From positions 14,446,001-14,510,000 of the forward strand of contig CM022677.1 of NCBI GenBank assembly GCA_012295275.1: a DNA stretch of 64,000 bases, written 5' to 3'. The stretch comes from Chrysomallon squamiferum. Taxonomy: Eukaryota > Animalia > Mollusca. The stretch's first letter is position 1. Each line of letters starts with the position of its first letter. The position numbers and the translations under genes are program-made. This document shows positions 469 through 63,169 of this stretch, piece by piece. Under the pieces are notes generated by a model. It made no database searches. It was not told the DNA's origin and saw nothing but the letters and a program-made list of their open reading frames with translations.

Positions 469-1809
469 TTATTATACTTCCATTTTTGTCAAGGTTTGTT
501 TGAAAATGTCTCACCAGTTGATTTGTATAACTAGGACAAAATGTTTGTGGATATTTTAATTAATAAAGAATTTTCGTATTTCATTTTAGATGTTGACAAA
601 TTAAGACAAGTCGATACTTTCAAATTATCGAACTACGAACAAACCTTTTATGTGACATAAATATTTGCTACAAAATTATTAATAGTGACTCTTATGTTAT
701 AACGTATAGAAAAAAATAGATGTTCAAAAAAATACTTTTTAGGCGACTAAATCATAATGTTTGTTTTTTTAAATTTCGTGCCTTGTCCTTACTGACATAA
801 CGTGCATAATCATCAGCTTGAAAGACAAGTAAGAATTCATTTGAATAATGTGTAATTTTTGTAATAGATTAAGTGATATTTATTGAAATCTGTTCTGAAA
901 CATATTTAAAGGAGTAAATATAATTTTAAGGATATTGTATTAATTCTTAGATTAATTGATTATATATTGATTATATATGTTTTTGTTTGTTATTTTAAAT
1001 TATGTTTTCAATTTTATTTTTAAGAAAAAGCTAATTGTCTTCTTCAGTTTAACTTGTCAGTACAGAAAGTTCACATTCCAAACAGCCCAGTCCAGCCTGA
1101 ACCAGTTTACTTCCTTGTGTCAAGAAAATGTGGAACTTTTAAAATATGTTCTGAAGTTCTGTGTCAGCCAATCTATCAGCTGGTGAGTCAGTTAATCTAT
1201 TAATGAATTAATTTATATAATTATTTTGTGTTGATGTATTTGCTTTTTGTTTTGTTTGTTATTGTGTATGCTATTTATTTATTTTAATTTTTTTGACCTA
1301 TATGATTGTGTTATTTTATGTTATGTTTTTGAATTTGTGTCTATTTATTTGTTTGAATTAAAGTTTGGCTCTCAGTTTTTCACTGTTTCTATCAAGATGG
1401 TTTTAAATGTAAATTTAATTATTAATTCATTGAAAAAGTAATGGAACATTAGGACAGATTTTGGACAGAGAACTAAATAATGTTTCATGGTTTCAGAAAT
1501 TCCACAGCATAGTTTGGTGTTGTGTTTATTTTTTGTTTGAATTTGATTGTGTTTAGCTTGGTGCAGTAGCTGATTCTGAGTTTGGTAAGGTTGTTATGTA
1601 GTTTGTTACGAAAATGATTTTATGTTTGAATTTGATTGTGTTTAGATTGGTGGAGTAGCTGATTCTGGTAAGGTTTTTATGTAGTTCTTAGTAAATTGAT
1701 TTTGGGTTTTGATGATGAAAGGTGTAACTAATGTTTATTTTATTTTTTACTATTTGCTGGTTGCAACATTCACCCACTCCAGTCTACATCTCAATATGGT
1801 TGACTGTTG

Positions 1810-2707
1810 TTTAAAAACTAGACTGTAGTGAAAGGTGAGTTTTAAAACTAGATTGTAGTGAAAGGTGAGTTTTAAAACTAGATTGTAGTGAAAGGTGAGT
1901 TTTAAAACTAGATTGTAGTGAAAGGTGTGTTTAAAACTAGATTGTAGTGAAAGGTGAGTTTTAAAACTAGACTGTAGTGAAAGGTGAGTTTTAAAACTAG
2001 ATTGTAGTGAAAGGTGTGTTTTAAAACTAGATTGTAGTGAAAGGTGTGTTTAAAACTAGATTGTAGTGAAAGGTGTGTTTTAAAACTAGATTGTAGTGAA
2101 AGGTGAGTTTTAAAACTAGATTGTAGTGAAAGGTGAGTTTTAAAACTAGATTGTAGTGAAAGGTGAGTTTTAAAACTAGATTGTAGTGAAAGGTGAGTTT
2201 TAAAACTAGATTGTAGTGAAAGGTGAGTTTTAAAACTAGATTGTAGTGAAAGGTGAGTTTTAAAAACTAGATTTAGTGAAAGGTGAGTTTTTTAAAACTA
2301 GTTTTAAAACTGTATTGTAAGGTGAGTTTTAAAACTAGATTGTAGTGAAAGGTGAGTTTTAAAACTAGATTGTAGTGAAAGGTGAGTTTTAAAACTAGAT
2401 TGTAGTGAAAGGTGAGTTTTAAAACTAGATTGTAGTGAAAGGTGAGTTTTAAAACTAGATTGTAGTGAAAGGTGAGTTTTAAAACTAGATTTTAAAAAAG
2501 AAAGTGAAAAGGTGAGTTTTAAAACTAGATTGTAGTGAAAGGTGTGTTTTAAAACTAGATTGTAGTGAAAGGTGTGTTTTAAAACTAGATTGTAGTGAAA
2601 GGTGAGTTTTAAAACTAGATTGTAGTGAAAGGTGTGTTTTAAAACTAGATTGTAGTGAAAGGTGAGTTTTAAAACTAGATTGTAGTGAAAGGTGTGTTTT
2701 AAAAACT
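1810..2707. repeat. 30-bp minisatellite, about 29 copies
   Basis: Unit TTTTAAAACTAGATTGTAGTGAAAGGTG(A/T)G; explains ORF 2485..2712. Confidence 0.97.
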
Positions 2708-3064
2708 TGCATTTTTATTGCTGTTGAAAGATTAAACTGTTACATTTTGTATCTAGATCCTTCATGAGATGTTTGCTACTGAGAGAGTGGATTTTAACAC
2801 AGTATTTTAACACAGTATTTTAACACAGTATTTTAGTATCTCTATGTATTTTTGTCTGTATATTTATACAAATTCAAGAAATAAAGAATTGTTATATATG
2901 TTTTATATTGCTATTATTATTATTATTTTTTTACTTTGTATATTTCTTTCTATTGTAAAGTCATGCATTTGCTGCTTATTTACCTATTAAAAATATTTGT
3001 TGTAGTGTTTAAGTTATGTAAATATTTGTATTTATTTATTTATTTAATATTAATTAATTCACAG

Positions 3065-3176
3065 GACCACTGCAGGCAGTGGTCAGTTTCCTGTAACTAA
3101 AATAGCAGAAATGAAGAAATTAAAAACATGTGCTGGAGACAGACAGATTCCTGGTGCTGAAATTACCTCCCTTGGG
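3065..3176 (+). CDS. MCC: Internal exon of an MCC (mutated in colorectal cancer)-like gene
   Basis: Follows a cacag acceptor and reads TTAGSGQFPVTKIAEMKKLKTCAGDRQIPGAEITSLG, matching vertebrate MCC 'IPIAKIAERVKL...DRPVLGSEISSIG' from memory. The predicted donor is non-canonical (GCAAAT). Confidence 0.8.
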
Positions 3177-3404
3177 GCAAATCTCATTTTGCTTTCTTTC
3201 TTTATATGTCTGTGTTCACATTGTTGTTTATATCCCAATAAAACTAAGAGAAAAGAAACAAATCAGATAATGTTATATTTAACATCATTTTAATCTGTTC
3301 TAATGCATTTGTCAAATCATTTATCCTTTTTTTTTGTTCTCAAAATTAATTTTCAGAATGTAAATTCTTAGAAATGTTTGGACTTGCTAGTGTTAGATAA
3401 CCAA

Positions 3405-3451
<47 letters not shown>

Positions 3452-4029
3452 TTATAGCAAATTTATAACTAATGCTTAATATATTTAAAACTTGAATTGG
3501 AATATACTGTTATATTGTTATCTGACTGATAATAACAGGGAAAAATATGAAAAATGAAATAAAAAGTTTGCAGTGATACTGAATAACTCGTAGACATGTT
3601 TTTCATAATTTCCAGTGTGATGTTTTAATTCATTAAAGTGTTGTTTGTTTTTTTATGGTGGTAATTTCAAATCATATCACCTCACACTAAAAAAAGAAAT
3701 TGACAGAAAATGATTCATTGACATATTTTTCAATATTTCAGATATGAATTTAATGGATTCTTAAATTTACAAATGTTTTCCAACTACAATCATTTTAAAT
3801 CAAATAACGCAAATAAATACAGTTTTAACAATAATACATATTTATTATTCATTATTTTTCATGATTTTTAACTTAATATTTTTTGCTTTATGGTAATACT
3901 GTTTCAAGTCAACTAAAATAAAAACATTTTTAAGAAAATAACACAGAATAAGTCATTGATATATTATTTTTCATGACATCCGATATGATTTTAACTGAGT
4001 TTAAACTTTGCTTATTTTTTCTACTTCAG

Positions 4030-4383
4030 CTTCCAAATATGAAATTAGTCAAACATTTAGTGCAGAGTTTACAGAGCTGTCCTAACATGCAGAAAATTGT
4101 TCAGACATTGTACAAGTGTGGTTCTGAGATAGGAGAAACCAAAGTGAAAGAGTTTGAAATTGAGTTTGAAAGACTTCAGAGCAAAATTGACCACCTCAAG
4201 TCACAGAATGACTTGGCTAACCTGACGCTGAATGAGAGCAAGTCCTACTCAGAGAGGTTGACGGTGTTGATGGGGAAGTATGAGTCTAACAACACAGCAC
4301 TGCAGTTGGCTATTAACTACTCTGATCAGATGATAGAGGCTTATGAAGTTTTCTGTGTTCTGCTGGAGAGTGAGATGTTTTAA
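4030..4383 (+). CDS. MCC: Exon of an MCC-like coiled-coil protein; 3' boundary uncertain (possible donor GTGAGA at 4369, otherwise stop at 4383)
   Basis: After a ttcag acceptor: HLVQSLQSC...KVKEFEIEFERLQSKIDHLKSQNDLANLTLNESKSYSERLTVLMGKYESNNTALQLAINYSDQMIEAYE, closely matching the MCC 'EFEVETERLNSRIEHLKSQNDLL...GKYESNATAL' region. Phase 0 fits the previous exon. Confidence 0.9.
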   Translation, partial: LPNMKLVKHLVQSLQSCPNMQKIVQTLYKCGSEIGETKVKEFEIEFERLQSKIDHLKSQNDLANLTLNESKSYSERLTVLMGKYESNNTALQLAINYSDQMIEAYEVFCVLLESEMF

Positions 4384-5489
4384 ATATATGTAAATTTCCC
4401 TTTTGTCAGCTCCTGTCTCAAACAAAAATTAATTAAAGTTAGATTGTGTCAACATATTAATTTAAATATATTTTAGATGATATAAATTTCTCATTTGGTG
4501 GCCTATAATGTATATAATTTAATTAAATTTCCCATTTGGCATTTGGTAGAAACGTACACAAAGACATTGTAAAGGCACATACTGAATCTGAAATAATATG
4601 TAAATGTTTTTGTGGGCTGGTGTGATTAGTTACTTTATGATGAAGCAGACATGTTCATGATGGTAAAGTTTACAAATTGTTAAATGGGCATTGTCATGTT
4701 TAATGTTACTTTATATGCAATGAAAAACTCATCTATTTCAGCTAAGAAAGTTGTTTAGTTTTATTTCCAAGTGAAGAAACCAAGTGAATAATGACAGGCA
4801 GAATTAATTATAATAATAATAATAATAATACAATGACAATAATAATAATAACAAGAACAACAATAATAATAGTAATAATAGTAATAACAATAATAATAAT
4901 AGTAATAATAATAACAGTAATAACTAGAATGGAAATAACAATAGGAATATAATAATAATAATAATAATTAAAGAAGATAATAATTATAATAAAATAAAAA
5001 TAATACTTTATTTTACATAATTTAAATGAATTCTCTCTAGAGATAGCTGGTGTGAGTTGTACTTTTTATTCTCTCTTCATAAAATATTAAGTGAAGTAAC
5101 AATAATCAAATATTTTTTTACAAAATCCGTTAGTAGTGAAAATTAAGTTACTAATAACCACAAATCTGATATTTATTTTTGCTCATTCTAACAACCATTT
5201 GATTAAAAAACTGCAGATGTCAACAGTTCAACTTTGTCTTAAGTTATGGTGGAATTTAAGACTGTTTTGATTATGCTGAAAATTTAGTTAACTTGGCTGC
5301 ACATTGAGTTTGAAATACAGTGATGTCACTTCTAGCTCTGTTTTTCACTTTAATTTCTAACTATATCCAACCAAAAGCAAAAACAAAAACAATTAAAATA
5401 ATTAATAAATAATAATTAATAATACAACAAATAAATAAAATAATTATAGAGACAGATAGAAACAAGTGAATGAGGCAGACAAACGACAG

Positions 5490-8009: not shown

Positions 8010-9373
8010 TTAGCAGACAGTTTGAAGTTTACTTTTACACCATGTAAATATGTTTATTTCTCCGCTGAAGCGCTCTCCCACGTACAATTTGTTGTCATCA
8101 CAACAGACAGACAAAGGTGTGGACAGTCCATCCTGGCGTGTGAGGATGTCACGTGTAATGTTACCACCTCGTGAGAACTGAACAACACAATTTCTATCAA
8201 AATCACAAACAAAAATATTTCCCTCCCTGTCACATGTAACACCTGTCAAGCCTTTCAGTCTGTCTGAATCACGTGACTCCCACTTGACGTCACCTGATGA
8301 CGTCACACAAACTAAACTGTTTCCTTTTGACACAACAATCAGACACTGATCATGAACTGTGAGACACGACGGTCTGGGGATCAAATCGGTTGAGATAGAA
8401 TTAATGAGCTGACCACTGTCTGTCAGTATGTCCAAGCACTGATTATACCCAGTGACCGCGAGACGGTTGCCAGGTAACACATCGATAAACTGATACTTTT
8501 TAACAGTTTTAACTGTTTTTACCAGTTTGAAGTTTTTCAAATTTAAAAACAATATTTTACTTTCATTTGGCAGAGCAACAACAACAACAACATCATCCCG
8601 CTGATCACGTGCTTCAGCAAGACCGACTGGTTCAGAGGAAGTTTTGTATCTTTTTATCAGTGATTTTCTTTCTAAACAAAAACATTTTACACATTCACTG
8701 AAACAATCACTAACAACAATTTTACTGTTGTCTGCACCTGACACCAGCAGGGAAACCAGAAACGGCTTGAATTCATCGTCTTGTGTTTTTGTGTTAATGG
8801 TGTCTGTGTGTTTGAGAGTGTCTGTCACTCTGTCTATCTGTGTGTCTGTTTGGATATTTGTGGATATTTCTGCAATGTGGACTGACATTTCTGCCTTTTT
8901 GTCAGATTTTATCAGATTTATTTTAAACTTTGCTTTTTCTATTCGGGAACGAGACTTAGACAGAAACTCGGAAGTTGTGTACTGAAGTTTAATGAATTTT
9001 AAAATGTTAATTTTTACATCTGACTCTGATTTTCTTGTCAGCAAATCTTCCCCCAATCTTATCATTTTTTTGTTTTCCTCAATCAGATGTTTGTGTTCAT
9101 TGAATAATTTGTCTATTTCTGAGTTTACAAAGTTCTGAGATTTTTCTATTTCTCTTATTAACCTGTCTTGTTCTTTGTCGACTGCGGCAGTAAAATCTGT
9201 GATTAGTGTGTTACCAATCATTCTGACCTCTTCTGTAGTGTCCACGACGTTGATGTCGACGGCTTGGCGAAGTTGCTCGATCATATCATCCATCTCTGTC
9301 TCAAGAATTTCTTTAAAGGTTTTGAGACTTTCAGAAACAGAACTCAGAAGTGACATGTGATCTCCCTTTTTAG
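8010..9373 (-). CDS. TRIM-like E3 ligase, coding exon 2: coiled-coil plus C-terminal NHL-like beta-propeller
   Basis: Open for 1364 nt after an atttcAG acceptor. Helical region followed by NHL-type motifs (IVVSDCFSECVKCF, PVGLAE, PSCLTVH, LTGVTCDREGNIFVCDFDRNCVVQF, GLSTPLSVCCDDNKLYVGE). Phase 1 matches the RING exon. Confidence 0.88.
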
Positions 9374-9379
9374 CTGAAA

Positions 9380-9431
<52 letters not shown>

Positions 9432-9675
9432 CAATCAGTCAGTTAATTAATTAACTAGAACTACTATTATTAATTAAGATATGCCTACAATGTGAAGTTT
9501 TAGAATTTATGTTATCAACTACTTTAAAAATCTGAGTAGAAAAATGACATAAATAAAGTTTCCTCTATTTCTTTAGGTTGTGATGATCAATATACGGCAT
9601 ACATATTTTTAGCTAAACAATCACTAAATGGTTAATACATATTTTTAGTTAATAAACACAACACTGCTGACTCAC

Positions 9676-9958
9676 AAAACTGTGATTGTAGCCGATCATT
9701 AGCGGCGTCCTGTAGTGAAAGGTTTATAGGGAATTGATCTGCCCATGTATTCACAGGTTTCGAGCTGTCTGGGATGTGGACATTCTGCCTGCAGAACGGG
9801 CAGGTGATTTGTATGTCGTTGTTGTCGTAATTATGACTTATAAAGTCCTGCAGGCATCTGCTGCACAACGAATGTCCGCAGTTTATTCGCGGCTTCTTGA
9901 AAAGTTCCGTACAAATGCAGCACGAAAGATTGTCATCGGAGTTAGCTGCTGTTGCCAT
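9676..9958 (-). CDS. TRIM-like E3 ligase, coding exon 1: C3HC4 RING finger (spliced product about 548 aa)
   Basis: MATAANSDDNLSCCICTELFKKPRINCGHSLCSRCL...ITCPFCR...WADQFPINLSL; cacAG acceptor 2 nt before the ATG, GTGAGT donor at 9675-9670. Confidence 0.9.
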
Positions 9959-9963
9959 ATCTG

Positions 9964-10027
<64 letters not shown>

Positions 10028-10538
10028 TTTAGAGATAACAAAGAACACCAGTTGAAAACCACTGACTGTAGTAAAAAACAACAAAATAAACATCTGAGTG
10101 TACAAGAATGCTGCAAGATAATTTCGCACACAACTATTTATGATCTAACTCGTACGTGTACAGTAAAAGAAACGTGAAGTAACGTATTCTGTGTAATAAT
10201 TATAACGTCAGAATAAACAAATGACATTGCTACCGAATAAAACAATTATAAATAAATAAATAAACTTATACGATATAACAAAGTTTTAAATTTTATTTTA
10301 AAACGTATTATATCGTAAGCCCTGCAGGTAATTTCTCAGTAGTAGTGATGGTAAATAAATCTCTAAATCGATATTTTTTTCTTACGAAATGAAAAATGTG
10401 ATACCAGGAAATAGTTCTGTAGTCCTCTGCAATTTCAACTTGTGACTGAAGTTGGTTTTGACAGACAACACACAGTGAGAAGAAGATACCAACTGAAAAA
10501 AAGGAAGGGTGTAAGCTTCAATGCTTATCTTTCTTTTG

Positions 10539-22199: not shown

Positions 22200-23700
22200 A
22201 GTTGATAAGATGTCGCAAGTTCAACAGTAACCCGAGTATTACGTGCACATCAAAGAGATATTCGATGTTATCAAACGTGCACACATTGACACTGGCCACA
22301 GTGGTTGCAATCAAATGGTAAAAGAGACAGACAAGAAGTATGCCAATATTACCAGGGATTCTACTGAACTGTTTATGTCAATGTGCACTGACTGTCAGCG
22401 TAAACTGATGACAAAGGGTGTGGTTGTCTGACCAATCTTGTCTAAAGAGTTGTCTGCTCAAGGTCAAGTAGATCTCATTGAATGCAATCGTTACCGCATA
22501 GTTCTGTCGAGTGGATTATGGTGTATCAGGATCATCTTACAAAGTTTGTTGTTATCCGCCCACTGACATCAAAGCGAGCTGCTGAGGTTGCAAACCAACT
22601 CATGGACATATTTCTGCTATTCGGTGCACCACATATATTACAACAGTTCCGAATTTACAGCTCAAATCATTTCTGATTTGAAGAGTTGTGGCCAGAGCTA
22701 GTTACAGTGCTTGATAAACTATGCCACACACAGAGTCAAGGTTTTGTAGAACGAGTTAATTATGGCATTAAAGACAGGCTTGTTGCATGATGAGTGAGAA
22801 TGATAGCGCTGATGCGTCTGTTGGTGTTAAATTTGTTCAGTTTCACAAGCACTCGACTTTCAATGCTGGAATAAAACAGTCACCTTATGCAACTTATTTG
22901 GCAGGATTGGTTTGACTTCCTCGTCATTACCATATGATGTTGACACTCAACCTCTACCAGAAATGACTGAACCTCTATCAGAAACAACTCAACCTCTATT
23001 AGAAACCACTGAACCTCTACCAGAAACAAATCAACCTCTATCAGAAACAACTCAACCTATACCAGAAACAATCAACTTCTACCAGAAACAACTCAACCAA
23101 TGAGCAGCATATACAAGAAAAGAAAGCTTGCAGTAGCCGCACAACAGAAACAAGCCGAGCTTGTTGTTAAGTCACGTGATTATGAAGAATGGTGCTGTTG
23201 GTGATAACGTAGCTGAGCCCATTCCGTCTGTTGATAGGGCATTTTTCTTGTATTCTGAAAGGGAAATATACCAGTTTGATTTATGTCCTCAGAGACTCCT
23301 GAGTGAATCTGACATTAACAGTGTGTCACTTCATCAAGCCAACAAAAAGCAGTCTCAACACGGTGGTCAGAGTTTCGTCAAGTGCAGTTGTAATGGATCT
23401 AAGAGATGTCGGAGTAAGAGATGTGCTTGTTTCAAAAATAATGTTTTGTGTAATAGCAGATGTCACAACAGTGTAAATTGTTTAAATAAATGAAGTATGT
23501 ATTATGTGTCACCAATGTATTACACTGGTAAATTGTTGTTACATGTAGTTGATTATTCAATACAGATAAAACATAGTTATTAGAAAAGACCCAAGAAATA
23601 CCCTTTAGCCGAACGATTGAACATTTTATTCATTTTGGCCAAATGACTAGAGGTCACAGGCATTTGACCAAATGACTGTTTTGACACATTGACTGTAACA
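22200..23700 (+). mobile_element. Decayed Ginger-like (KRBA2/SCAND3-type) DDE integrase DNA transposon; left end not found, right terminus probably at 23700
   Basis: HHCC zinc motif (RAHIDTGH...MCTDCQRK), QVDLI, WIMVYQDHLTKFVVIRPLTSKRAAEVA, FGAPHILQ, HTQSQGFVERVN, and C-terminal CSCNGSKRCRSKRCACFKNNVLCNSRCH. Many stops and frameshifts. Ends with repeated CCAAATGACT sub-terminal motifs and ...TGTAACA (Ginger elements have TGT...ACA termini). Confidence 0.88.
22945..23098 (+). repeat. 21-bp tandem repeat inside the integrase element, about 7 copies
   Basis: AACCTCTA(C/T)CAGAAACAACT(C/G) units, translating as (T/N)QPLPET. Confidence 0.85.
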
Positions 23701-23765
23701 TGCAGGAAACTTCGATAATGTTTTTGTAAACAAATACAGTTTTTGGAGAATTTGTTCTCGTAAAC

Positions 23766-25311
23766 ATGAGCAGTAAGAAAGTGACAACCAAGCAGACATT
23801 ACAAATGATAATGTTTGATTCTGAGGATGAGAATGAAGCGTTGTAATATTGAAATAATAGTGATTTTTAAAGTGAAGAGAGTGATGATGATCTTGTCAAT
23901 GATACAAATAATGAAAACATGAATGCAAATGAAGGTGAAAGTGATTCTGCTGATAATCACAGCCCAGGTGGTGATGTTTTACAACCTGTAAGGAGGTGTG
24001 GCAGTGGTTGAGGATGCAGCCGCGGTAGAGGACGTGATCGAGGTGTGTGACGGAATCCTCAGCCTCAGGTCAGTGGATGAATGATGTGAGAAAGTATCGT
24101 GAAAAACAATTCAATCCTAAATATTCCAGATTCACTCAATAATGAGAGCAGGCCTGTGACATTTTGACGTTATTCTGGAATGATGATTTATGGCAGCTCT
24201 TTGTTGTTGAAACTAACAGAACATGTCAGTGAAGCAAAACGCCTCACATTAGTATGCAAAATCGTTTAGTTCACTGACAAAGATTAAAACATTTTTTTGC
24301 TGTTGAGTAGTGATGGAAATGCTTATTCACAAGAATTACTAGGAACAATTTTGGTGAGATAAGGAAAATGACCATCACACCTGGATTTTCACTGATTTTT
24401 ACAAGAGACAGATTTTTAGCAATATGGTCTATGCTACATAATGTATACGCGTTAGACCAAGAGTTAGACAAATCTGATAAGATTTACAAATCAAGGCCAA
24501 TGTTCAATCACTTGTTGGAAAAATTCGGGCTGCAATCTGTCACTTCACGAGGGAATGATTCTGATATAAAACTTCCTCTCTGTAAAACAGTATAATCAAA
24601 CAAAAACCACAAAAGTGGGGTATCAAAACCTTCCTAGTTTGTGACAGTGAGAATGGCTACATTTCAAATGCAGAAGTATATACAGGTTGCAGTAAGGATG
24701 CTGAAACAGTTGAAAATCTTGGTGTGTCTGGAAACCTTGTTGTTCGTATGTTGGAACTGTTTTGTGACCAGCATTACTGTGTGTTTACAAACAGACGCTA
24801 CACTAGTGTATATTTGTGTGAGATTTTGCTGGAAAAGAGAGGAATCTGCCTAGTGGACACTGCACTTACAAATTGCTCTCTTTTTCAAAAAAACCGTGAA
24901 AAAATCAAAAAGTTAAATCAGAAGGGTGCAGTTTGAACTATTGTTCAATAGAATTGTAGCAGCAATTGTTTGGTGTGACAAAAAGCCAATTTAGTTTGTA
25001 ACTTCTGCATGTATAGCCCACCCACCACAGTACATGTACAAAGATATGATAGTAAAGAGCACAGAAGACTTCCTGTGGGATGTCCAAAAGCTGTCCAAAG
25101 TTACAAAATGAAAAACTTATCAAGCTGCATCAGGGCAGATGTCATTAGAACTTGCCATGTGATCTTATTATGAAGTTTTTTTACATGGGCTGTGAATAAA
25201 GCATATGTAATTGTGTGGCATTATCAGTTGCATAATCCCCAGGGGCAAAGAGTGTTTGCATTCCATGTGTTTGTTGAAAAACTCTGACATCAACTTGTAG
25301 GCAATTATCAT
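23766..25311 (+). mobile_element. piggyBac (PGBD4-like) transposase pseudogene, 5' part
   Basis: ATG at 23766, acidic N-terminus and RGRGR linker, then FTRDRFLAIWSMLH, DKIYKSRPMFNHL, KPQKWGIKTFLVCDSENGYISNAEVYTG, HYCVFTNRRYTSVYL, WCDKKPI and FHVFVEKL*HQLVGNY; numerous stops and frameshifts. Confidence 0.9.
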
Positions 25312-25689
25312 GCAAATATTCAAATCACATATTATAGTGAGATAGAATTTATTGTCAGAACTGGAATGTGTCCTAAATACATTCCAATAGGTTTAGGAGG
25401 ATGTCGAGGTCCAATGCAGGGATTGACATATAAAGCAAATGAAACAACACCTATGGGTAATAAAGATAATATAAAGCATACAGAACAAGATCAGTTTTTA
25501 GATGAAGATGAAGCCAAATATAAAGAAAGAATTCAGAAAACATGGAAAATGAGATCAACTGCCCCTGTTTGGGACAATTGGAATAAACGTAGAAATAGAC
25601 GTAGACAGTTATGGCCAGTGCATGGTGCATATGGTGATAGAACTATAGAGACAATGGGAAACGCATATGATTGGTCATATCCATTATAA
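25312..25689 (+). CDS. 5'-truncated viral ORF, putative capsid C-terminus (about 125 aa)
   Basis: The frame is open from the junction: ANIQITYYSEIEFIVRTG+MCPKYIP...RRNRRRQLWP...WSYPL*. The alternating beta-strand-like start recalls the last jelly-roll strand, there is a basic patch, and the stop overlaps AATAAA (25689-25694). Capsid identity is inference. Confidence 0.5.
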   Translation, partial: ANIQITYYSEIEFIVRTGMCPKYIPIGLGGCRGPMQGLTYKANETTPMGNKDNIKHTEQDQFLDEDEAKYKERIQKTWKMRSTAPVWDNWNKRRNRRRQLWPVHGAYGDRTIETMGNAYDWSYPL

Positions 25690-25740
25690 ATAAATGTAAT
25701 TAATAGCGTATGAATACAGTTATTAGTCTTTTAATGAATT

Positions 25741-25835
25741 ACGTTTATTTTGTCACGTACACAATATGACGTCATATATATTACGTCATACCTTTAATGT
25801 TATAAATAAAGACGTTTCGAAAAATCGTCATTCGT
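25741..25835 (+). promoter_or_regulatory. Viral Rep/NS promoter and candidate replication origin
   Basis: ACGT at 25741, 25755, 25769 and 25783; CRE palindrome ATATGACGTCATAT 25764-25777; stem TATGACGT/ACGTCATA 25765-25790; TATAAATA at 25801; Inr-like TCATT at 25828; ATG at 25891. Confidence 0.7.
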
Positions 25836-25890
25836 TACTGTTGTCTCTTAACATACGAGTTGCATACAAAATATAATATTAAATTCAAAT

Positions 25891-28093
25891 ATGGATAGAT
25901 TTGTAGATTTACCTGAGGAAACGTACTACAGTGTTTTGGTTGGCCATGTCAACTATGACATGGTCCACCCGAAACATTTAGTTCCCCGTTTCCTGGCAAA
26001 AGACAAAGATGGAAAATTTGTCTATGCAACGGGGAAAAATTACATTAAATCCTATCAAATGGACAATCAAGAAATTATGGATAAACCTGTGGATCATTGG
26101 GCCACGCCCAATTACGAATATTTAGCTAGAGGACAGGACCGTGTTATTACAGAACTGAAAGCATTTGTCAGAAATAAAAACTGGAAAACATTGATGGTTT
26201 ACCATCAGAAGGAATGCGAAGCTATAAGTAATCATCCTACATACGGAACACATGTTCACATAATTTGGAAAACAACATTAAAAACGCCATCCCAAGATAG
26301 ACAGTATCGTCGATTACATCGAGCTGTATTAAACGAAAACGGATATTTAAAAATTATGAAACTCAAAGATCCTCAAAGACATCCGTTCAAGAGTATATGA
26401 AGTACTTAATGAATGATTCTGAAAAACAATTTTTGGGAACTAATGATCAAACCATGTTAAATATCTGGAATGAAATTGAAAAAGAGATACATGATAATGA
26501 CGCTGACATAATGAACATATTACACGATTTCTTTGATGCTTCCGGTTCAAAAAAATTAGACGCATCCATAATGACATCCAAAATTAGAGAGCCAATCCGT
26601 AAGGATGATGGATCAACATCTAAAGAAACAACACTAAATACATCTTCGACAAGTAAATTAGGAATGACAGTGAAGGAGATGAAGAAAGAAAATGATATAA
26701 TAGAGGCCATGGACACATCCGATAATAAAAAAGATGTGACAGATCAAAGTGATAAACCATCTATTCCGTCTCATCTCATCAATAATAAGTCAGCAGAAAC
26801 TTTAGATTTTTTTTATAAACTTATCAAACAGTATCCAGAGATAAATAAATTAAATTTGCTAATTGGTAAATTTGATACTAATAGCAATGAATTCAAGGCA
26901 TTGTGCAATGCTGTAGCAAATTCTTCTGGAGATAAGCTGTTTAAGGCAGCACGTTCCAAATATTTAGAGGAACAGTCAGATAGATCAGCCTTTGATCAGA
27001 TCCAAATGATGAATGACAATATCGAACACTATACGACACCAGACGATAGTTTCAAAATCTTCAACTCATGGTGTAGAGAACAGGATGTAGAAGAGAGGTG
27101 GTTGTATACACTAATTGTATCTTTACTGAAAGGCAAAGGAAAGAAGAAAATCGGTTTATATTTCCAAGGTGATTCGGATAGCGGTAAGACGATGATGTCA
27201 AGTTCAATGTTCGAGTGTGTGGCTACATCTGGAAAAATTGCCAAGGATAATTTTCCTTGGCAAATGTTGGTTGGAAAAAAGATAATACTTGGTGAAGAAA
27301 TATCAATTACACAGACAAACATAGACAAGTACAAAGACTTATTAAGTGGAAGTAAAGCAACATGCGAGAGGAAAGGCACGACACCTTGTTATTGTCGTGC
27401 TAACATCTGTTTGCTCAATTCGAATAATAAGTTTGGGGATGGTCTTACATCGTCTCAAATAAGTATAATGAAAACCAGATTGTTTCTAGTTCAAAATCTC
27501 AAACGAAGTAATGTTCTTAAGCACTGCTATAATCTGCTTCACCCAAAATTGTTTACTGTAGGGAGAGAACCGTCAGAAGACGAAATGAACATTGCTATGG
27601 AAAATGATAGAGAGTATTTTGCTAATAAAAACAACATCAGTATACATGATAATACATTTGAAGGAAGATTCAGTTATTTTACAGACAATTTCGATGACAG
27701 TCAGGTAGATTTTAAAGATGATAACATTCCAGTTGCTCCAGAACCATCAACTCAACAGATAAACCAGAATACATAACCATCTCGGATTCTGATGATGATC
27801 AAACATCATATAATCCATCACAAGATATTTTCATTTTATCTCAAAACAAATGCAAAACAGATAATGAGGTGAATAAAGGTACTAAACGAAAACGATATGA
27901 TGTCATTACAGAGGATATTTCAGATGATTCATTAGATCCCAACTTCATAACAGTAGATAATGAACCAGAAGATCCATCGGAAAAAAGATTTAAGTACTAT
28001 ATTCCACCTAGTCAGCCATTTGAATGTATGTTTAATGATACCATACCAGAAACACAGATGAATGTGTTTAACAAATATAAACAAGAATCATAA
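25891..28093 (+). pseudogene. NS1: Parvovirus NS1-like replication initiator (HUH endonuclease + SF3 helicase), about 730 codons, in three frames joined by two -1 frameshifts (~26375 and ~27752)
   Basis: HUH motif GTHVHIIW (HVH 26251-26259); YMKYL tyrosine motif at ~26394; Walker A GDSDSGKT 27168-27191; KDNFPW; Walker B IILGEE 27282-27299; B' KDLLSGSKATCERKG; motif C LLNSN; Arg finger KTRLF; acidic tail with KRKR. No in-frame stops once the shifts are corrected. Confidence 0.9.
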
Positions 28094-28172
28094 AGACAAT
28101 AAGTTATTAATGACATTATTAATTGTTTATTGAATATGTTTAATTGATATTAATGAAAATGTTAAATGTTCA

Positions 28173-28200
28173 AATAAAAAATGTTAAATAAATAAATGTA
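28173..28200 (+). terminator. Polyadenylation signals of the viral NS1-like gene
   Basis: AATAAA at 28173 and tandem AATAAATAAA at ~28187-28196, 80-100 nt after the stop. Confidence 0.55.
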
Positions 28201-28386
28201 TTAAAATTTATAAAAAGTGTTTGTCATCATAATATTTGTTAATAATATATAAATATATATATTATAAAATCATTATTCATATTTATTAATTATAAATACA
28301 ATTAACACGTGTGTACGAAATTGGGACATGATAGATCCCAACCTAACTCTTGTTATTGTAAATAAAACAAAGTATAACATGACTGA

Positions 28387-28536
28387 CATGACTTAAGATT
28401 ACAGACCTCACAAATTGGAAAGAGCCTCCCCATGCAACATCAAACAGTGGGTGTGTAGTGTGTCTGGAAAAGGCCAGACAACAAAATCCTAGTGCTGCAT
28501 ATAAGAACTTTCCCAAAAGGTCAGAAACATTCTAAG
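28387..28536 (+). mobile_element. piggyBac transposase pseudogene, 3' part (start of the Cys-rich domain)
   Basis: Across frameshifts reads HDLRLQ / HKLERASP / ATSNSGCVVCLEKARQQNPSAAYKNFPKRSETF, the CxxC...R..T pattern expected shortly after QLVGNY in PGBD4-like proteins. Confidence 0.72.
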
Positions 28537-29044
28537 GCTTAGAAATATATGAGACATCCAAATATAATTTCATGTAATAAATTGTTTAACAGCAAAAATA
28601 TATTTGTATTAAAAATGCTATGTTTGTTAATAAGAACTATAATGTGAGAGAGTATGTCCTCTCCATATTAAACTTCTATTTTAGTTTTGTTATTATATAT
28701 CTGAAATACATTCTTCCCTGTACTGTGATCTACAGTTTATGAGAATAAAGTCATTGTCACTGTACAAGTGAGTCACATCTCCTTTAAAAATACACATTAT
28801 ATTTGTCCTCAATTTTATTTGTAGAATTCTCTAGTTATTAATTATTACTCCTTTTTATATTTATAAATAAATAAATTAAATTAATTAATTAATAATTTAA
28901 ATACATAAATTAAATAAAAAAAGTAAAAAGATACAGAAAATCACAGTGTGATCTGTTATTTTTATAACTGCTGTGTCATTTCATGAGTTGTCTTAATAAT
29001 TATTCCTTATTATATTATATTTTCATGTACGCTTTTCAATTACT

Positions 29045-29530: not shown

Positions 29531-29556
29531 CATAAGCATCTTTCAAACATTTAATT

Positions 29557-30173
29557 TCACACACACACACTATTATCAGAGTAGCAGTGATCACTATTCC
29601 TGACACAAACATACACACCCACACATACTATTATCAGAGTAGCAGTGATCACTATTGCTGATACACTCACTAACACAGCCACACTAACACATAATATTAT
29701 CAGAGAAGCAATTATCACTATTGCTGATACACTCACACACACTATTATCAGACTAGCAGTTATCACTATTGCTGATATACACACACACAAACACACATGC
29801 ACACACACAAACATACTATTACCAGATACACAAACACACACCATTTTCAGAGTTTAAATTATCAGTATTGCTGATACACTCAAACACAAACACACATATA
29901 TTATTATCAGAGTAGCAGTTATCACTTTTGCTGATATACACACACCCATACACAACACACACTACTATCAGAGTAGCAGTTATCACTATTGTGGATACAC
30001 TCAAACATTCACATGCACATAGACTATTATCAGTGTAGCAGTTGTCACTATTGCTGTTAAACTCATAAAGACACATGCACACATACTATTATCAGAGTAG
30101 CAATCATCAATATTGCTGACAGACAGATACATACCGATATCAGAGTAGAAATTATCAGTATTGCTGATACACT

Positions 30174-30222
<49 letters not shown>

Positions 30223-30600
30223 TATCAGAGTAGCAGTTTTGACTATTCCTGATACACTCACAAAGACATACACACTCATACTATTATCCCAGAAGCAGTT
30301 ATCACTATTGCTGATACACGCACACAAACATAGACATACACCGATATTATTATCAGAGAAGAAATTATCTCTATTGCTGATACACATACACTATTATCAA
30401 AGTAGCATTTATCACTATTGCAGATATACACACACCTATCTACACATGCACACACACATACATACTATTATCAGAATAGCAGTTATCATTATTGCTCACA
30501 CTCACTCACAGACACACTATTTCACTATTGCTGATACACTCACAAACACACAAACAGACTATTATCAGAGCAATTATCTCTATTGCTGATACACACACTC
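29557..30600. repeat. Degenerate satellite: ~38-bp core interleaved with CA-rich spacers
   Basis: Core ACTATTATCAGAGTAGCAGTTATCACTATTGCTGATACAC repeated many times. Confidence 0.92.
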
Positions 30601-32079: not shown

Positions 32080-34724
32080 TAGATAGATGGATTTTGTTAA
32101 TGCAGATACTGTTGATGTTGTTGTTATAACAACTAATGTAATTGTTTATCATCAACTACTACTACAATTTTAACCATTATTTACTATTACACTTTTCATC
32201 TGAACACAGTAAATTGTTTAAGTTGTGAAACTTCCTCTCACCTTTAAAGCAGCAGCCAGTCCTTTAGTGAGAGCAGTTTTATCAGATAATCCATTACTAG
32301 ACAGATCTAGTTCTGTGAGTCCAGTGTTTAGTGAGAGCAGTTTTATCAGATAATCCATTACGAGACAGATCTAGTTCTGTGAGTCCAGGGTTTAGTGAGA
32401 GCAGGTTTATCAGATAATCCATTACTAGACAGATCTAGTTCTGTGAGTCCAGTGTTTAGTGACAGCAGTTTTATCAGATAATCCATTACTAGACAGATCT
32501 AGTTCTGTGAGTCCAGTGTTTAGTGACAGCAGTTTTATCAGATAATCCATTACTAGACAGATCTAGTTCTGTGAGTCCAGTGTTTAGTGAGAGCAGTTTT
32601 ATCAGATAATCCATTACTAGACAGATCTAGTTCTGTGAGTCCAGTGTTTTCTACTAGAGTCAATGAGAGGAGTTTCAAATCAGTGGAGCCTACACATAGC
32701 TCTGAAAATCAGTAGATATCAGTAGTGCTGAAATTATAGAGAAATTATTATGAAAAGTAAAATAGTGGCAGATAAAGAAAAGTTAATAAAATGACATGAT
32801 TAAAAAAATAAGAAAAAGAAAACCGAGAGTTTTAAGTTTTGTGTTTTCTTTAAGAGCTGGACTGACACAGTGAGAGAAGTAATCATTTCCTAGAGAATTA
32901 CTCAACACATCCAAATATTCCTGTTTACCAACAATATTTTGACTACACAGTGCTAGAAACAAAACCCTCAGGTTGTGTGTATTAGCAGTAAAAACTATTA
33001 ATACAGAATGTTAATACTTATTTATTATTAAAATGTAGTTAGTAGAAGACATCATAATGTTTTAACAGTAGTAACAGCAGATGTAGTAATACCAGTAGTA
33101 GAACTAGTAGAAGCAGTAGCAGTTGTAGTAGTAGTAGTAGTAGTAGTAATTATATTAGTAACAGCAGCAGCAGAATTTGTAGTTGTAGTATTAGTGCTAA
33201 TAGTACCAGGAGTAGTAATAGTTGAAGTATTAATAATAGAGTAGTAACAATGGTAGTAGTTGTAGTATTAGTGGTAATCGTACTAGTAGCAGTAATAGTG
33301 GTAATAATTGTAGTATTAGTAGTAACAGTATTAGTAGTAACAGTACTAGTTGTAGTAATAGTGGTAATAGTTTCTAGTATTAGTAAAGCAACAGTAGTAG
33401 TAGTAATAGTTTGTAATATTGTTGTTATTATGATTATTGTTATTGTTATTATTTTTTTGTTATTATTACTGTTATTATTATTATAAAACATTTTATAACA
33501 GTTATAATTAAGATTACTCACAGCACTCTCAGTGTCTGTTTTGTTGGTGGTGAGGCTAAGGAAGATCACTGTTGTGTTAGAACACACTGCCAAACACACA
33601 GCTCAGAAAGCCTGGGGTCCAAAACTGTTTCCTGATAAATTTAAAACCTAGTTAAAAAAATAACGAAAATACAGAACGCTAAATTATTCAGTAGGTTGTA
33701 ATTTTACATAAAATAATTAAAAGGTTAATAATAATTAATGTGAATATTATGTAATTCAGTATGATTATATTTCAAATAAGTTAAAAATAATAAGAAAATA
33801 AACAAATGATAAATAGATAGATACATACATCAAATAGATAGACAGAAGATAGTCAGAAAGATTAATAATTAAATAAAAATAAATAAACTAAAAATAATCA
33901 ACTTTCTACTAAAACTTGTTTTAAGAGCATTTTTATAAATTAAAACTATAAATAAATTTAAAATTATTTAAATTTTCTTCTTCTAAAGCTATTTATGTTC
34001 AGAACTAACAAAAGAGAACTTAAAGAAAGATAATATAAAATATTTTCTTTCTTTGTCATACTTCAAAATATTACAACTTTCAAAATAATTTTTAAAAACA
34101 TAAAGAAAAGAAAGGAAGAAAAAAGAAAGAAAAATAAAACATGATTATTAGGAACAAATAAGAAATGATACATAAAGATAGAGACAGAAAAACAGATAAG
34201 TATATAGTAAGTAGAGACATAGTAAGAAAGATAAACATATTCATCTGAACATTTACAAGGAAAGAAATACAGACAAACAAAAGCAGAGATAGAAATAAAA
34301 TAAATAAATAGGGAGGTAGGTACAGAAAGAGAAACAGACAGATAGACTAAGACATATTTACAGATTTACCTGAATATTTTTCAAAGATTTAAAATGTGAA
34401 TAAGTGGAAATGTTGGTGTAAAAGCTTGTGGCAGTTTAAGTCTTGGTCTGGCTGCTTTCAACAAAAACTCCAGTTTCACAAGAAGATTAATGAGTTGAAT
34501 CACATGATCAAACATTTTCTGTTCCCTTTCTTTCTAAGACATTATTTTTTACCAAAATACCTCTGGCATTTGTGGTGTTTGTGGTTTCTTTTCTAGTGTG
34601 TCTGGATCATTCTTGGCACAGTCTGAGTTTGAGTTTTTAGTGGTTGGTCTGGTGATGTCAGTTTGTCTCGGGTCTAATGGTGGTACTGGTGTTGTTGTTG
34701 CCAACTGCTGTTTCTTTTTCAGTT
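30977..34724 (-). pseudogene. Multi-exon RNI/NLR-type leucine-rich-repeat gene, disrupted copy A
   Basis: Exon-like blocks: 34724-34370; ~33648-33523 VLNLSGNSFGPQAF*AVCLAVCSNTTVIFLSL; ~32920-32824 EYLDVLSNSLGNDYFSHCVSPALKENTKLKTL; ~32701-32242 LTLVENTGLTELDLSSNGLSDK; ~31864-31748 (degraded); 31153-30977 VQELSLNSSCLT...LKDVDIRNCPDLS. Stops and frameshifts present. Confidence 0.8.
32263..32648. repeat. 64-bp minisatellite (6 copies) formed from LRR-coding sequence
   Basis: (G/C)AGCAG(T/G)TTTATCAGATAAT anchors at 32271, 32335, 32399, 32463, 32527 and 32591. Confidence 0.95.
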
Positions 34725-60810: not shown

Positions 60811-61415
60811 GGTGTCGTCCCATATTGTCAAAATTAATACAGAAATAACAACCTGACCCTACCTTGCTGCTGAATGGATTAGCCCAATGCTGTAAATGTA
60901 TTATTTGTTTTGTGTCTTGTTTGATCTTTTATTTCTTGAAAATTTGTTAATTCTTCTTTGTTTCACAAATTGATTTGTTTAACCTATTAATCCAATCTTC
61001 TCTGTCAGTTACAAACAGTCAAATCTTGTGCTATCTTTTCAGGACAATTGGTTAATCTTCCTTTGTTTTACATAGTTTTCTTTAGACTATTGATCAAATC
61101 TTCCTTGGCTTGTTTAACATTTTCAATTGCATCCCATGACATTCTCCTCTTGACATTCTCCCTTTTGTGTTTGCGTCATTGCCGGGTTCCATTCAAGGCT
61201 CAACAGATCTCTACCCCACCAGCACCCAACATCTACAAGTTTGTAGACCTCATCCAAGGAATTGAGAAGGCAGAGCAGGCCAAAAGGATTCAGATCCAGT
61301 TTGGAGGTGTAGGACGTCTCAAGAGACAGTTGTAGGCTGGAGACAAGACACTTCTCCAGTACCTCGATGCAGTTGCGCACCTCGTCAAACTTGAACTTCG
61401 TAACTCAGTTGATTA

Positions 61416-62556
61416 CAGTATCCCTGAATATAGTGCTTGAACTTTGAATAATACTATCCCTGAATATAGTGCTTGAACTTTGAATAATACTATCCCTGAA
61501 TATAGTGTTTGAACTTTTGAATGAAATAGTGTTTGAACTTTGAATATGAATATAGTTTGAACTTTGAATAATACTATCCCTGAATATAGTGCTTGAACTT
61601 TGAATAATACTATCCCTGAATATAGTGCTTGAACTTTGAATAATACTATTCCTGAATATAGTGCTTGAACTTTGAATAATACTATCCCTGAATATAGTGC
61701 TTGAACTTTGAATAATACTATCTCTTTGAATAATACTGTCTCTGAATATAGTGCTTGAACTTTGAATAATACTATCTCTGAATATAGTGCTTGAACTTTG
61801 AATAATACTATCTCTGAATATAGTGCTTGAACTTTGAATAATACTATCTCTGAATATAGTGCTTGAACTTTGAATAATACTATCCCTGAATATAGTGCTT
61901 GAACTTTGAATAATACTATCCCTGAATATAGTGCTTGAATTTTGAATAATACTATCCCTGAATATAGTGGGCTTGAATTTTGAATAATACTATCCCTGAA
62001 TATAGTGGGCTTGAATTTTGAATAATACTATCTCTGAACATAGTACTTGAACTCTGAATAATACTATCTCTGAACATAGTACTTGAACTTTGAATAATAC
62101 TATCTCTGAATATAGTGCTTGAACTTTGAATAATACTATCTCTGAATATAGTACTTGAACTCTGAATAATACTATCTCTGAACATAGTGCTTGAACTCTG
62201 AATAATACTATCTCTGAACATAGTGCTTGAACTCTGAATAATACTATCTCTGAATATAGTGCTTGAACTCTGAATAATACTATCTCTGAATATAGTGCTT
62301 GAACTCTGAATAATACTATCTCTGAATATAGTGCTTGAACTTTGAATAATACTATCTCTGAACATAGTGCTTGAACTTTGAATAATACTATCTCTGAATA
62401 TAGTGCTTGAACTTTGAATAATACTATCTCTGAATATAGTGCTTGAACTCTGAATAATACTATCTCTGAACATAGTACTTGAACTCTGAATAATACTATC
62501 TCTGAACATAGTGCTTGAACTTTGAATAATACTATCTCTGAACATAGTGCTTGAAT
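61416..62556. repeat. 33-bp minisatellite, about 34 copies
   Basis: Unit TACTATC(C/T)CTGAA(T/C)ATAGTGCTTGAACT(T/C)TGAATAA; explains ORF 61952..62545. Confidence 0.97.
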
Positions 62557-63169
62557 GTTAAATACACAAATTCAACTTGTTTTGTTTTCCTCTGTGGCTG
62601 GTACATGGGATTTGACAGGATGGGATGACACTCAACCCTGTGGCCTAGTCCACTGTCTTATTTGAGTACCGTGAATGGGATTAGTGATTTATTTATGACT
62701 TCCACAAGATGGATAGAACCATGTGTGTGTGTATGAGTGCATGTGTGTATCAGCAATAGTAATAATTTCTACTCTGATAATAGGGTGGCTGTGTGTGAGT
62801 TAAGAAATATTTGGTTATCAGTTTATATGTTTAAATGCTTTGTACAAAATACTCAGGCCTGTTTTATTTAAATTTAAGATTGAAACTGATGGTGCCCTTA
62901 GTCTTTGTTTATACCACCAAGGGTCACTACTCTGAGTTAAAGAGCTTGTATACTGGTGGAAACTCATTAGGTAAGCTTGACATAATAAATTATTTTTATA
63001 TTTTTCAGTAAAAAAAAAATGCTAATTTTTATAAAATTAAATTAGATTTTAATACAAAATAATTAGCACCAAAACTATCAGCAGCAATATGTAATGTGGT
63101 GGTGATAGTAGAAACTGTGATGTTGTAATAGTAGCATCAGCATCAGCAGTAGTAATAAATAAATAAATA

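Follow-up and report, generated by a model that had tools for sequence, protein, structure and literature searches.

Parvovirus-like fragment within a piggyBac-type transposon of Chrysomallon squamiferum with a likely capsid gene end ahead of NS1

Monosense parvoviruses by convention carry the non-structural gene on the left and the capsid gene (VP) on the right, an arrangement that is not a formal criterion, and rolling-hairpin replication is established for the Parvoviridae. Here we describe a parvovirus-like piece of ~3.1 kb that sits within a decayed copy of a piggyBac transposon in the mollusc Chrysomallon squamiferum (GenBank assembly GCA_012295275.1, contig CM022677.1, positions 14,446,001 to 14,510,000 of the forward strand; this whole stretch of 64,000 nt is called the window, and all positions are counted from its first letter). 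The window DNA is AT-rich (GC content 0.30), rich in microsatellites and eukaryotic. The convention is not followed in this locus: the likely VP end lies before the replication gene NS1, both in the window and in sister copies from the same species. In our reading, held at about even confidence, the piece is an unclassified parvovirus-like fragment that likely carries the capsid gene before NS1 on the same strand and likely stems from a linear genome that ended in hairpins and ran from the capsid cassette to NS1. A first-pass annotation, made from the letters alone, had called 25312..28386 an endogenous parvo-like virus; this was borne out by the NS1 motifs and by a match to Pfam Parvo_NS1 above its cut-off, and the breakpoints of contigs now place the start at 25302-25310 and the end at ~28378-28382.

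The closest described viruses are Parvo7226 (BK066305), Parvo7324 (BK066733) and Parvo7825 (BK066677), unclassified parvoviruses of large size that Buck et al. 2024 list in their supplement (PMC11071296). They measure 7226-7913 nt, come from goose and rodent faecal or swab samples, were all three deposited as linear, and two are labelled Cah-bearing (PMC11071296). Compared by eye, they resemble the window in the NS1 N-terminus (~23 of 58 residues with Parvo7226), in the HUH and helicase motifs at the same spacing and in a VP motif that ends in Y-x-P-I-G-[IL]-G-G and lies equally far from the last strand. They differ in the length of NS1 (1088-1098 aa, versus ~734 codons in the window), in a shorter VP tail after the motif and in being free contigs of 7.2-7.9 kb, whereas the window holds a 3.1-kb fragment without the Cah open reading frame (ORF) that, together with a genome of >5 kb, characterizes the large Cah-bearing group. 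The lineage is not wholly undescribed, as both its relatives and the idea of a circular genome precede in PMC11071296, and the earlier proposal of an undescribed lineage was too strong. Two further sequences, MT138329 and MT138334, come from cloacal swabs of bar-headed geese, exceed 7 kb and have an additional ORF (Shan et al. 2022, PMC9001828). They are known by description and offer a lead only; they are like Parvo7324 and Parvo7825 in size class, in having three large ORFs and in the kind of sample.

With the NS1 proteins and endogenous elements of the Parvoviridae the window shares the HUH endonuclease plus superfamily 3 (SF3) helicase, the parvovirus length and a fragmentary insertion in a host repeat; it differs in that what is likely the capsid gene precedes NS1 on the same strand, and in being a fragment without a terminal hairpin. 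No close relative among classified species was found in the libraries searched. The CRESS DNA viruses of the Cressdnaviricota, whose single-stranded genomes are circular and encode a Rep, likewise combine an HUH and SF3 replication protein with tandem cassettes and a short spacer, but the window lacks a match to a CRESS Rep family and its nonanucleotide-type stem-loop does not rise above chance. The window NS1 is also about twice as long as a CRESS Rep. In the Echinococcus multilocularis densovirus (EmuDNV), monosense NS1/VP units are integrated in multiple copies as well, every gene having its TATA box followed ~30 nt downstream by an initiator, but these units run from NS1 to VP and carry inverted terminal repeats or their remnants, of which the window junction has none (PMC6880638). 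Megaparvoviruses (SwaBA-MePV-1 and beetle endogenous viral elements) come near in their large linear genomes, cassettes 5' of NS1 and long VP C-terminal tail, and differ in that the upstream ORFs encode a phospholipase A2 (PLA2) protein and an unknown protein, with VP 3' of NS1 (PMC13426907). A literature search, which left most subscription journals uncovered, turned up no earlier account of a layout with the capsid first on the same strand, nor of integrated copies from this lineage; on capsid-first or circular parvoviruses, only Buck et al. 2024 and Shan et al. 2022 bear on the lineage.

The locus was compared with contigs from short-read assemblies of the same species (runs X1, X2, X3, X5 and X7, the last of these RNA); runs X8-X11, which had few or no sequence words in common with it, were left out. 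Comparison A is represented by 32 of its 2823 pieces, and comparison B by 32 of 781 pieces and 15 of 43 joints. The resulting features are:

23600..25309 (start approximate), + strand: left side of a piggyBac-type (PGBD4-like) transposon, decayed and present in multiple copies; host DNA (from Pfam, stops and frame changes)
25302..25309, no strand: left junction, an 8-nt microhomology between transposon and virus (from the ends of contig matches)
25303..25689, + strand: likely VP 3' end of 128 codons, presumably the last jelly-roll strand and a C-terminal tail of ~95 residues (from homologs)
25690..25890, + strand: spacer of 201 nt, likely the NS1 promoter (from motif positions and sister copies)
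25891..28093, + strand: NS1-type replication protein with HUH endonuclease, SF3 helicase and acidic tail (from motifs, Pfam and homologs)
28094..28317, + strand: AT-rich 3' region, likely the NS1 polyadenylation (polyA) region (from a GC content of 0.14 and AATAAA sites)
28318..28382, no strand: block common to other copies, which continue past 28378/28382 in letters foreign to the transposon; viral or another repeat (from a joint 28076-28318 and loose ends)
28398..28763, + strand: right part of the piggyBac-type transposon, presumably the cysteine-rich transposase end, with the right end (from joints, loose ends and translation)

NS1 is read from three overlapping frames (25891-26400, 26301-27776 and 27725-28093) that add up to ~734 codons, close to the ~730 codons first estimated. 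All eight motifs named for it were recovered: the HUH motif GTHVHIIW (26245-26268) and YMKYL (26394-26408), and the SF3 helicase motifs GDSDSGKT (27168-27191), KDNFPW (27243-27260), IILGEE (27282-27299), KDLLSG (27333-27350), CERKG (27363-27377) and LLNSN (27411-27425). The middle piece matched Pfam Parvo_NS1 (PF01057) with an E-value of 5.7e-8 (32.5 bits against a cut-off of 20), and the best PDB sequence matches of NS1 were parvovirus NS1 and adeno-associated virus Rep (E 0.001-0.03). There was no Pfam match to CRESS Rep families for the window pieces at E up to 1, nor to Viral_Rep, Gemini_AL1 or RNA_helicase for the relatives P0012, P0003 and P0017 at E up to 10. The protein has the HUH endonuclease and SF3 helicase of a Parvoviridae NS1 and, with none of these Rep families matched, not the features of a CRESS-type Rep, and judged by this gene the virus would work like a parvovirus. 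The frame is broken near 26.38 kb and 27.75 kb; contigs from other runs differ from the window at both places, so that the interruptions may either stem from faulty assembly or be peculiar to this haplotype.

Homologs of the window NS1 show 44-66% identity to it. The relatives include a cluster of gene calls in another genome (P0012, P0006, P0004, P0007, P0014 and P0019, on an ENA contig of 297,455 nt) with mates on an ENA contig of 60,905 nt; these calls are 76-95% alike where compared, two are near full length (698 and 724 aa), and both contigs seem to show a single locus, assembled twice. The top ESM Atlas clusters for P0012 were NS1 at 0.98. A Foldseek search with a low-confidence model of P0012 (predicted local distance difference test score, pLDDT, of 38) gave as first match a protein of Parvoviridae sp. 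(A0A7D3UI69, 1093 aa, E 8e-28), far ahead of the next (1e-12), and Parvo7226_NS1 was counted as 1093 residues as well. The first match and the equal count argue for kinship with the large parvoviruses; the two proteins may be the same, and MT138329 or MT138334 is possibly the source of A0A7D3UI69. The fold search of the PDB gave nothing at E 0.001 or better. Viral contigs yielded no relative for any of six queries (the upstream ORF, the NS1 piece, P0003, P0017 and two alignments); none was found in metagenome contigs with the NS1 alignment, nor in phage records. L001 was dropped as a relative, its match being a short stretch within an unrelated eukaryotic protein of 1798 aa.

The first-pass annotation had further noted the 3' end of an ORF ahead of NS1, its stop overlapping AATAAA and with a gap of ~200 nt, and this description holds: the ORF is on the same strand and truncated at its 5' side, its stop (25687-25689) is overlapped by AATAAA, and the gap is 201 nt. 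Of the three matches in a HMMER scan, P0021 (61% identity, E 3e-23) and P0022 (40%, E 2e-12) were kept, and P0023 (a Takifugu repeat protein, 21%) was dropped as low-complexity. On the N-terminal side, P0021 and P0024, which cluster together, reach 21 residues beyond the start of the window ORF; they are located on ENA contigs of 297,455 and 60,905 nt, and NS1 homologs are found on ENA contigs of equal size. Aligned by eye, the first 33 residues of the window ORF share, without gaps, 12 identities with the C-terminus of Parvo7324_VP, and P0021 shows 16 identities in 53 columns; the proteins ending in the matching pattern are annotated as VP in Parvo7226, Parvo7324 and Parvo7825 (supplement of PMC11071296). 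The ORF had no match in Pfam or the PDB, and a word search gave no homologs of greater extent. The matched C-terminal stretch presumably comprises the last jelly-roll strands. By sequence, the ORF is likely the 3' end of a longer gene, the capsid gene VP. The longer homologs and the likeness to VP C-termini speak against a complete small non-structural gene and against host or transposon sequence, which had been named as alternatives.

Summed contig depth over 25376-25693, the capsid end, was 3.5-10 times the NS1 median in all four runs and about equalled the peak over the helicase core (27178-27283); depth is not copy number, and the excess likely reflects many more diverged copies that align at conserved parts only. 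At 25488 one contig each in X5 and X7 departs from the capsid ORF; a short stretch and then many T letters in a row follow, which may be the tail of a retroelement in a sister copy.

The order of capsid end and NS1 recurs in sister copies. The capsid end and the start of NS1 are crossed by single contigs at ~99% identity (comparison A: X2 record 15), 93-95% (A: X1 record 2; B: X7 record 22), 87% (B: X1 record 3, X3 record 9 and X5 record 15), 83% (B: X1 record 1, X3 record 7 and X5 record 14) and 82% (B: X1 record 2). Stretches of the spacer that do not align keep their length within 4 nt (280 versus 284 and 74 versus 78), with joints at 25689-25798, 25646-25927 and 25812-25887, and diverged copies of high depth rejoin at 25798, beside TATAAA at 25801. 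Of the 799 rows in the table of differences the 40 best supported were considered, 28 of which lie in the middle NS1 piece; 20 of these 28 fall on third codon positions (P 4e-5), as do 19 of 22 in the cluster 26511-26771. The bias is as expected if the copies diverged as working viruses, and they look like separate captures of viruses that diverged under selection. The order from capsid end to NS1 is real and conserved, and because order and spacer length are kept in copies with such a bias, it is likely native to the virus, not a local rearrangement. A different origin would be an ambisense or segmented virus, with the tandem order made by one rearrangement in the host and spread by duplication together with the transposon. 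An ambisense layout would likewise agree with how the proteins of the relatives are listed, and with the high depth over the capsid end some copies may lack NS1 or have a more diverged one; but in all four runs of comparison B contigs run on upstream of 25302/25303 in letters that are not those of the transposon, one by 782 nt, so that the sister copies are not duplicates of this insertion. Such third-position bias is moreover unlike neutral decay after duplication, and the spacer looks like a single polyA-plus-promoter unit. We consider a host rearrangement unlikely.

The spacer contains, after the polyA signal, CRE (cyclic AMP response element)-like sites at 25767-25774 and 25781-25788, TATAAA at 25801 and TCATT at 25828. 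It is likely the NS1 promoter, a function suggested by these motifs; the tapeworm densovirus NS1 has a similar spacing of TATA box and initiator (PMC6880638). A contig of the RNA run X7 crosses the spacer, yet X7 also covers the transposon and downstream repeats, and DNA carry-over is possible. As the first-pass annotation had stated, there is no long terminal palindrome: within 25250-28460 no perfect stem exceeds 10 bp. In the 3' region 28094..28317, which holds AATAAA at 28173, 28187 and 28191, the longest perfect stem is likewise 10 bp and made of A and T only. An 8-bp stem with TATTAC lies at 25765-25790 and does not match NANTATTAC; shuffled sequences equalled the stem in 34 of 300 cases and the TATTAC hexamer in 134 of 300, and the fold of the stem-loop has a z-score of -1.6. 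The spacer was therefore set aside as a rolling-circle origin, for which support is no better than chance, and of the earlier label origin/promoter the promoter part stands as likely.

The first-pass annotation had concluded that the integrated molecule came from a circular or concatemeric genome. This is not favoured by our results, as no back-joint was seen among the 15 of 43 joints listed, the candidate origin is at chance level and the relatives were deposited as linear. A circle, either the genome itself or a hairpin-less form in which the virus persists, would carry tandem NS1 and capsid cassettes, be replicated by NS1 through a rolling circle and have been opened inside the capsid gene at integration. 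It predicts a compact and conserved junction from capsid to NS1 without a hairpin, as is found here, and it goes with the finding of at least five NS1 gene calls that share a 297-kb contig, a contig of equal size bearing a homolog of the capsid end. Against it stand the chance-level TATTAC stem-loop, the lack of a match to CRESS Rep families at E up to 10 for full-length relatives, and the lack of a joint that leads from the end of NS1 to the capsid again among the 15 listed of the 43 joints in comparison B, although contigs cannot show absence. The joint 27704-28329 was not used, its short side being 21 letters long with a similar motif near 27930.

The relatives bear on the same question. 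In the first 400 nt of Parvo7324 and Parvo7825 long palindromes are visible by eye, with perfect arms of 54 bp in Parvo7324, where the ATG of the Cah ORF follows the palindrome on the + strand. The relatives that have both proteins are flagged linear, two of them with long palindromes at the contig start. In parts 7, 8, 10 and 11 of the naming key 18 of 21 Cah-labelled entries are linear and three circular (oyster, coral and abalone; PMC11071296). The linear flags and starting palindromes of the three relatives, the 18 of 21 linear entries in these parts, and a spacer without hairpin remnant, set against the tapeworm densovirus concatemers with inverted repeats or remnants near many genes, all argue for a linear genome. 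In the VP lists compared, the shared motif is missing from the end of the proteins of Cah-labelled clam viruses, and the circular-flagged C-termini lie outside the comparison; these clam viruses may be another branch, which weakens the case for a circle.

A gene model from Plakobranchus ocellatus, P0017 (GFO18443.1, 928 aa), is 28% identical to the window NS1, with an HUH motif that looks degenerate. After its NS1 part comes sequence that looks, by eye, like the beginning of the VPs of the three relatives, which is the opposite order; its tail had no match in the ESM Atlas at 0.9 or above. Under a circular genome both cyclic orders may occur in the lineage, NS1 to VP being apparent on one strand in P0017; but this is an automatic gene model, which may splice across separate copies. 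The order in P0017 also suits an ordinary linear parvovirus with NS left and VP right that integrated as head-to-tail concatemers, the window then being a joint between units with the terminal hairpins deleted. Concatemers of this kind are described for densoviruses in tapeworm genomes (PMC6880638), and several copies per contig occur in one related genome. We nevertheless hold little expectation of concatemers here: the same spacer length and TATA island in copies at 82-99% identity would not be expected from independent hairpin deletions, the junction has no inverted-repeat remnant, and the palindrome of the free relatives leads into the Cah ORF and not into NS1.

Several points weigh against a capsid-first linear genome. 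Neither genome end is in the insertion, and thus no hairpin of this virus was seen. The VP call comes without a significant profile or fold match, the preprint proteins being compared by eye only: the fold prediction proposed for the upstream ORF yielded a poor AlphaFold model (pLDDT 37), for which Foldseek gave no match at E 0.001 or better, and among its non-significant top 20 five parvovirus capsid fragments at E 1-2.4 were not counted as evidence. The proteins of the relatives are listed as Cah (6p3 in Parvo7226), VP and NS1 (PMC11071296), which gives no strand for VP and NS1 and so would fit an ambisense layout too. According to the preprint, circular genomes may be the case for most parvoviruses with Cah (PMC11071296), a remark that goes with the three circular flags, and the linear flag may be a default for unclosed contigs. 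P0017, finally, has the opposite order. Weighing these, we regard a linear, hairpin-ended genome as somewhat more likely than a circle, which is possible but the less probable of the two; that the relatives are linear with this same native order, the case that would contradict the permuted circle of the first-pass annotation, is now slightly favoured, with the NS1 strand of the relatives unseen.

The insertion itself could be delimited from both sides. Two left-flank pieces of the transposon match Pfam DDE_Tnp_1_7 (E 7.7e-15 and 9.2e-5), and the right part we take to be the cysteine-rich end of a piggyBac-type transposase. In run X1 the summed contig depth is ~500-4,400 over the left transposon part versus ~70-220 over most of NS1. 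Uninterrupted piggyBac copies are represented by a joint 25309-28450 in three of four runs and by 24993-28398 in two of four (comparison A), the viral piece standing in place of a few dozen piggyBac bases; at the right end of the transposon, loose ends of low agreement lie at 28763 in three of four runs. Virus-like contigs start to match at 25302/25303, their upstream letters differing from the transposon, and transposon contigs match through 25309 before they diverge, which leaves an overlap of 8 nt. On the right side the common sequence stops at 28378-28382 and the transposon resumes near 28398-28404. The left junction is bridged by X2 record 14 (25246-25386, no differences) and the right junction by X1 record 8 (28051-28424, three differences); as the runs come from different studies, one junction or both have confirmation from a sample other than the source. 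No target duplication was seen at the insertion. The right junction (28377-28396) reads as a 7-nt direct repeat followed by TTAA, filler-like as from end-joining. A TATAAA at 28291 and an E-box-like CACGTG at 28306 precede an ATG at 28326, from which a frame of 22 codons spans the right junction (28291-28394 in all); it could be the start of a next cassette, but TATAAA occurs four times in that AT-rich stretch.

Under the capsid-first linear reading, the AATAAA over the stop would end the capsid transcript and an internal TATA promoter would drive NS1, which by analogy with parvoviral rolling-hairpin replication would nick and unwind the terminal hairpins. Where a chromosome had broken, end-joining likely took up an internal stretch of the replicative form, which is double-stranded; in such a capture both ends and the greater part of the capsid gene would have been lost, and no target duplication would have arisen. 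Related viruses were likely captured separately to give the sister copies.

Elsewhere in the window, decayed integrase-like pieces adjoin the piggyBac copy on the left (22231-23493; Pfam Integrase_H2C2 at E 5e-4, below the cut-off), with a cysteine-rich end and a 21-nt tandem repeat at 22923-23090, a picture of nested mobile elements. An intronless RING-finger gene in two frames, with a likely beta-propeller C-terminal part (TRIM-like), lies at 8010-10144 on the - strand, and an exon of an MCC/USHBP1-type host gene at 3952-4383 (Pfam USHBP1_PDZ-bd, E 1e-21). Minisatellite arrays are found at 29550-30600 (units of ~60 nt), 32199-32710 (64 nt) and 61400-62570 (33 nt).

The interest of the locus is limited by the precedence of the relatives and of the circular idea in the preprint, and by the fragment lacking both genome ends. 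Free members of the lineage were found only as contigs from goose and rodent swab or faecal samples, and the insertion, bridged to the transposon in independent runs, ties the lineage to an animal germ line, with repeated captures of diverged viruses within one species. The locus also offers a concrete place for testing the brief remark of the 2024 preprint on circularity in some large parvoviruses. Only tentatively can it be proposed that there is an invertebrate parvovirus-type lineage without terminal hairpins and with a circular, tandem NS1/capsid genome, intermediate toward circular Rep-encoding or papova-type viruses; if so, the window would hold such a circle cut open, and Plakobranchus, with its opposite order, the same circle cut elsewhere. 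Both surviving layouts, capsid-first linear or circular, depart from the textbook monosense parvovirus.

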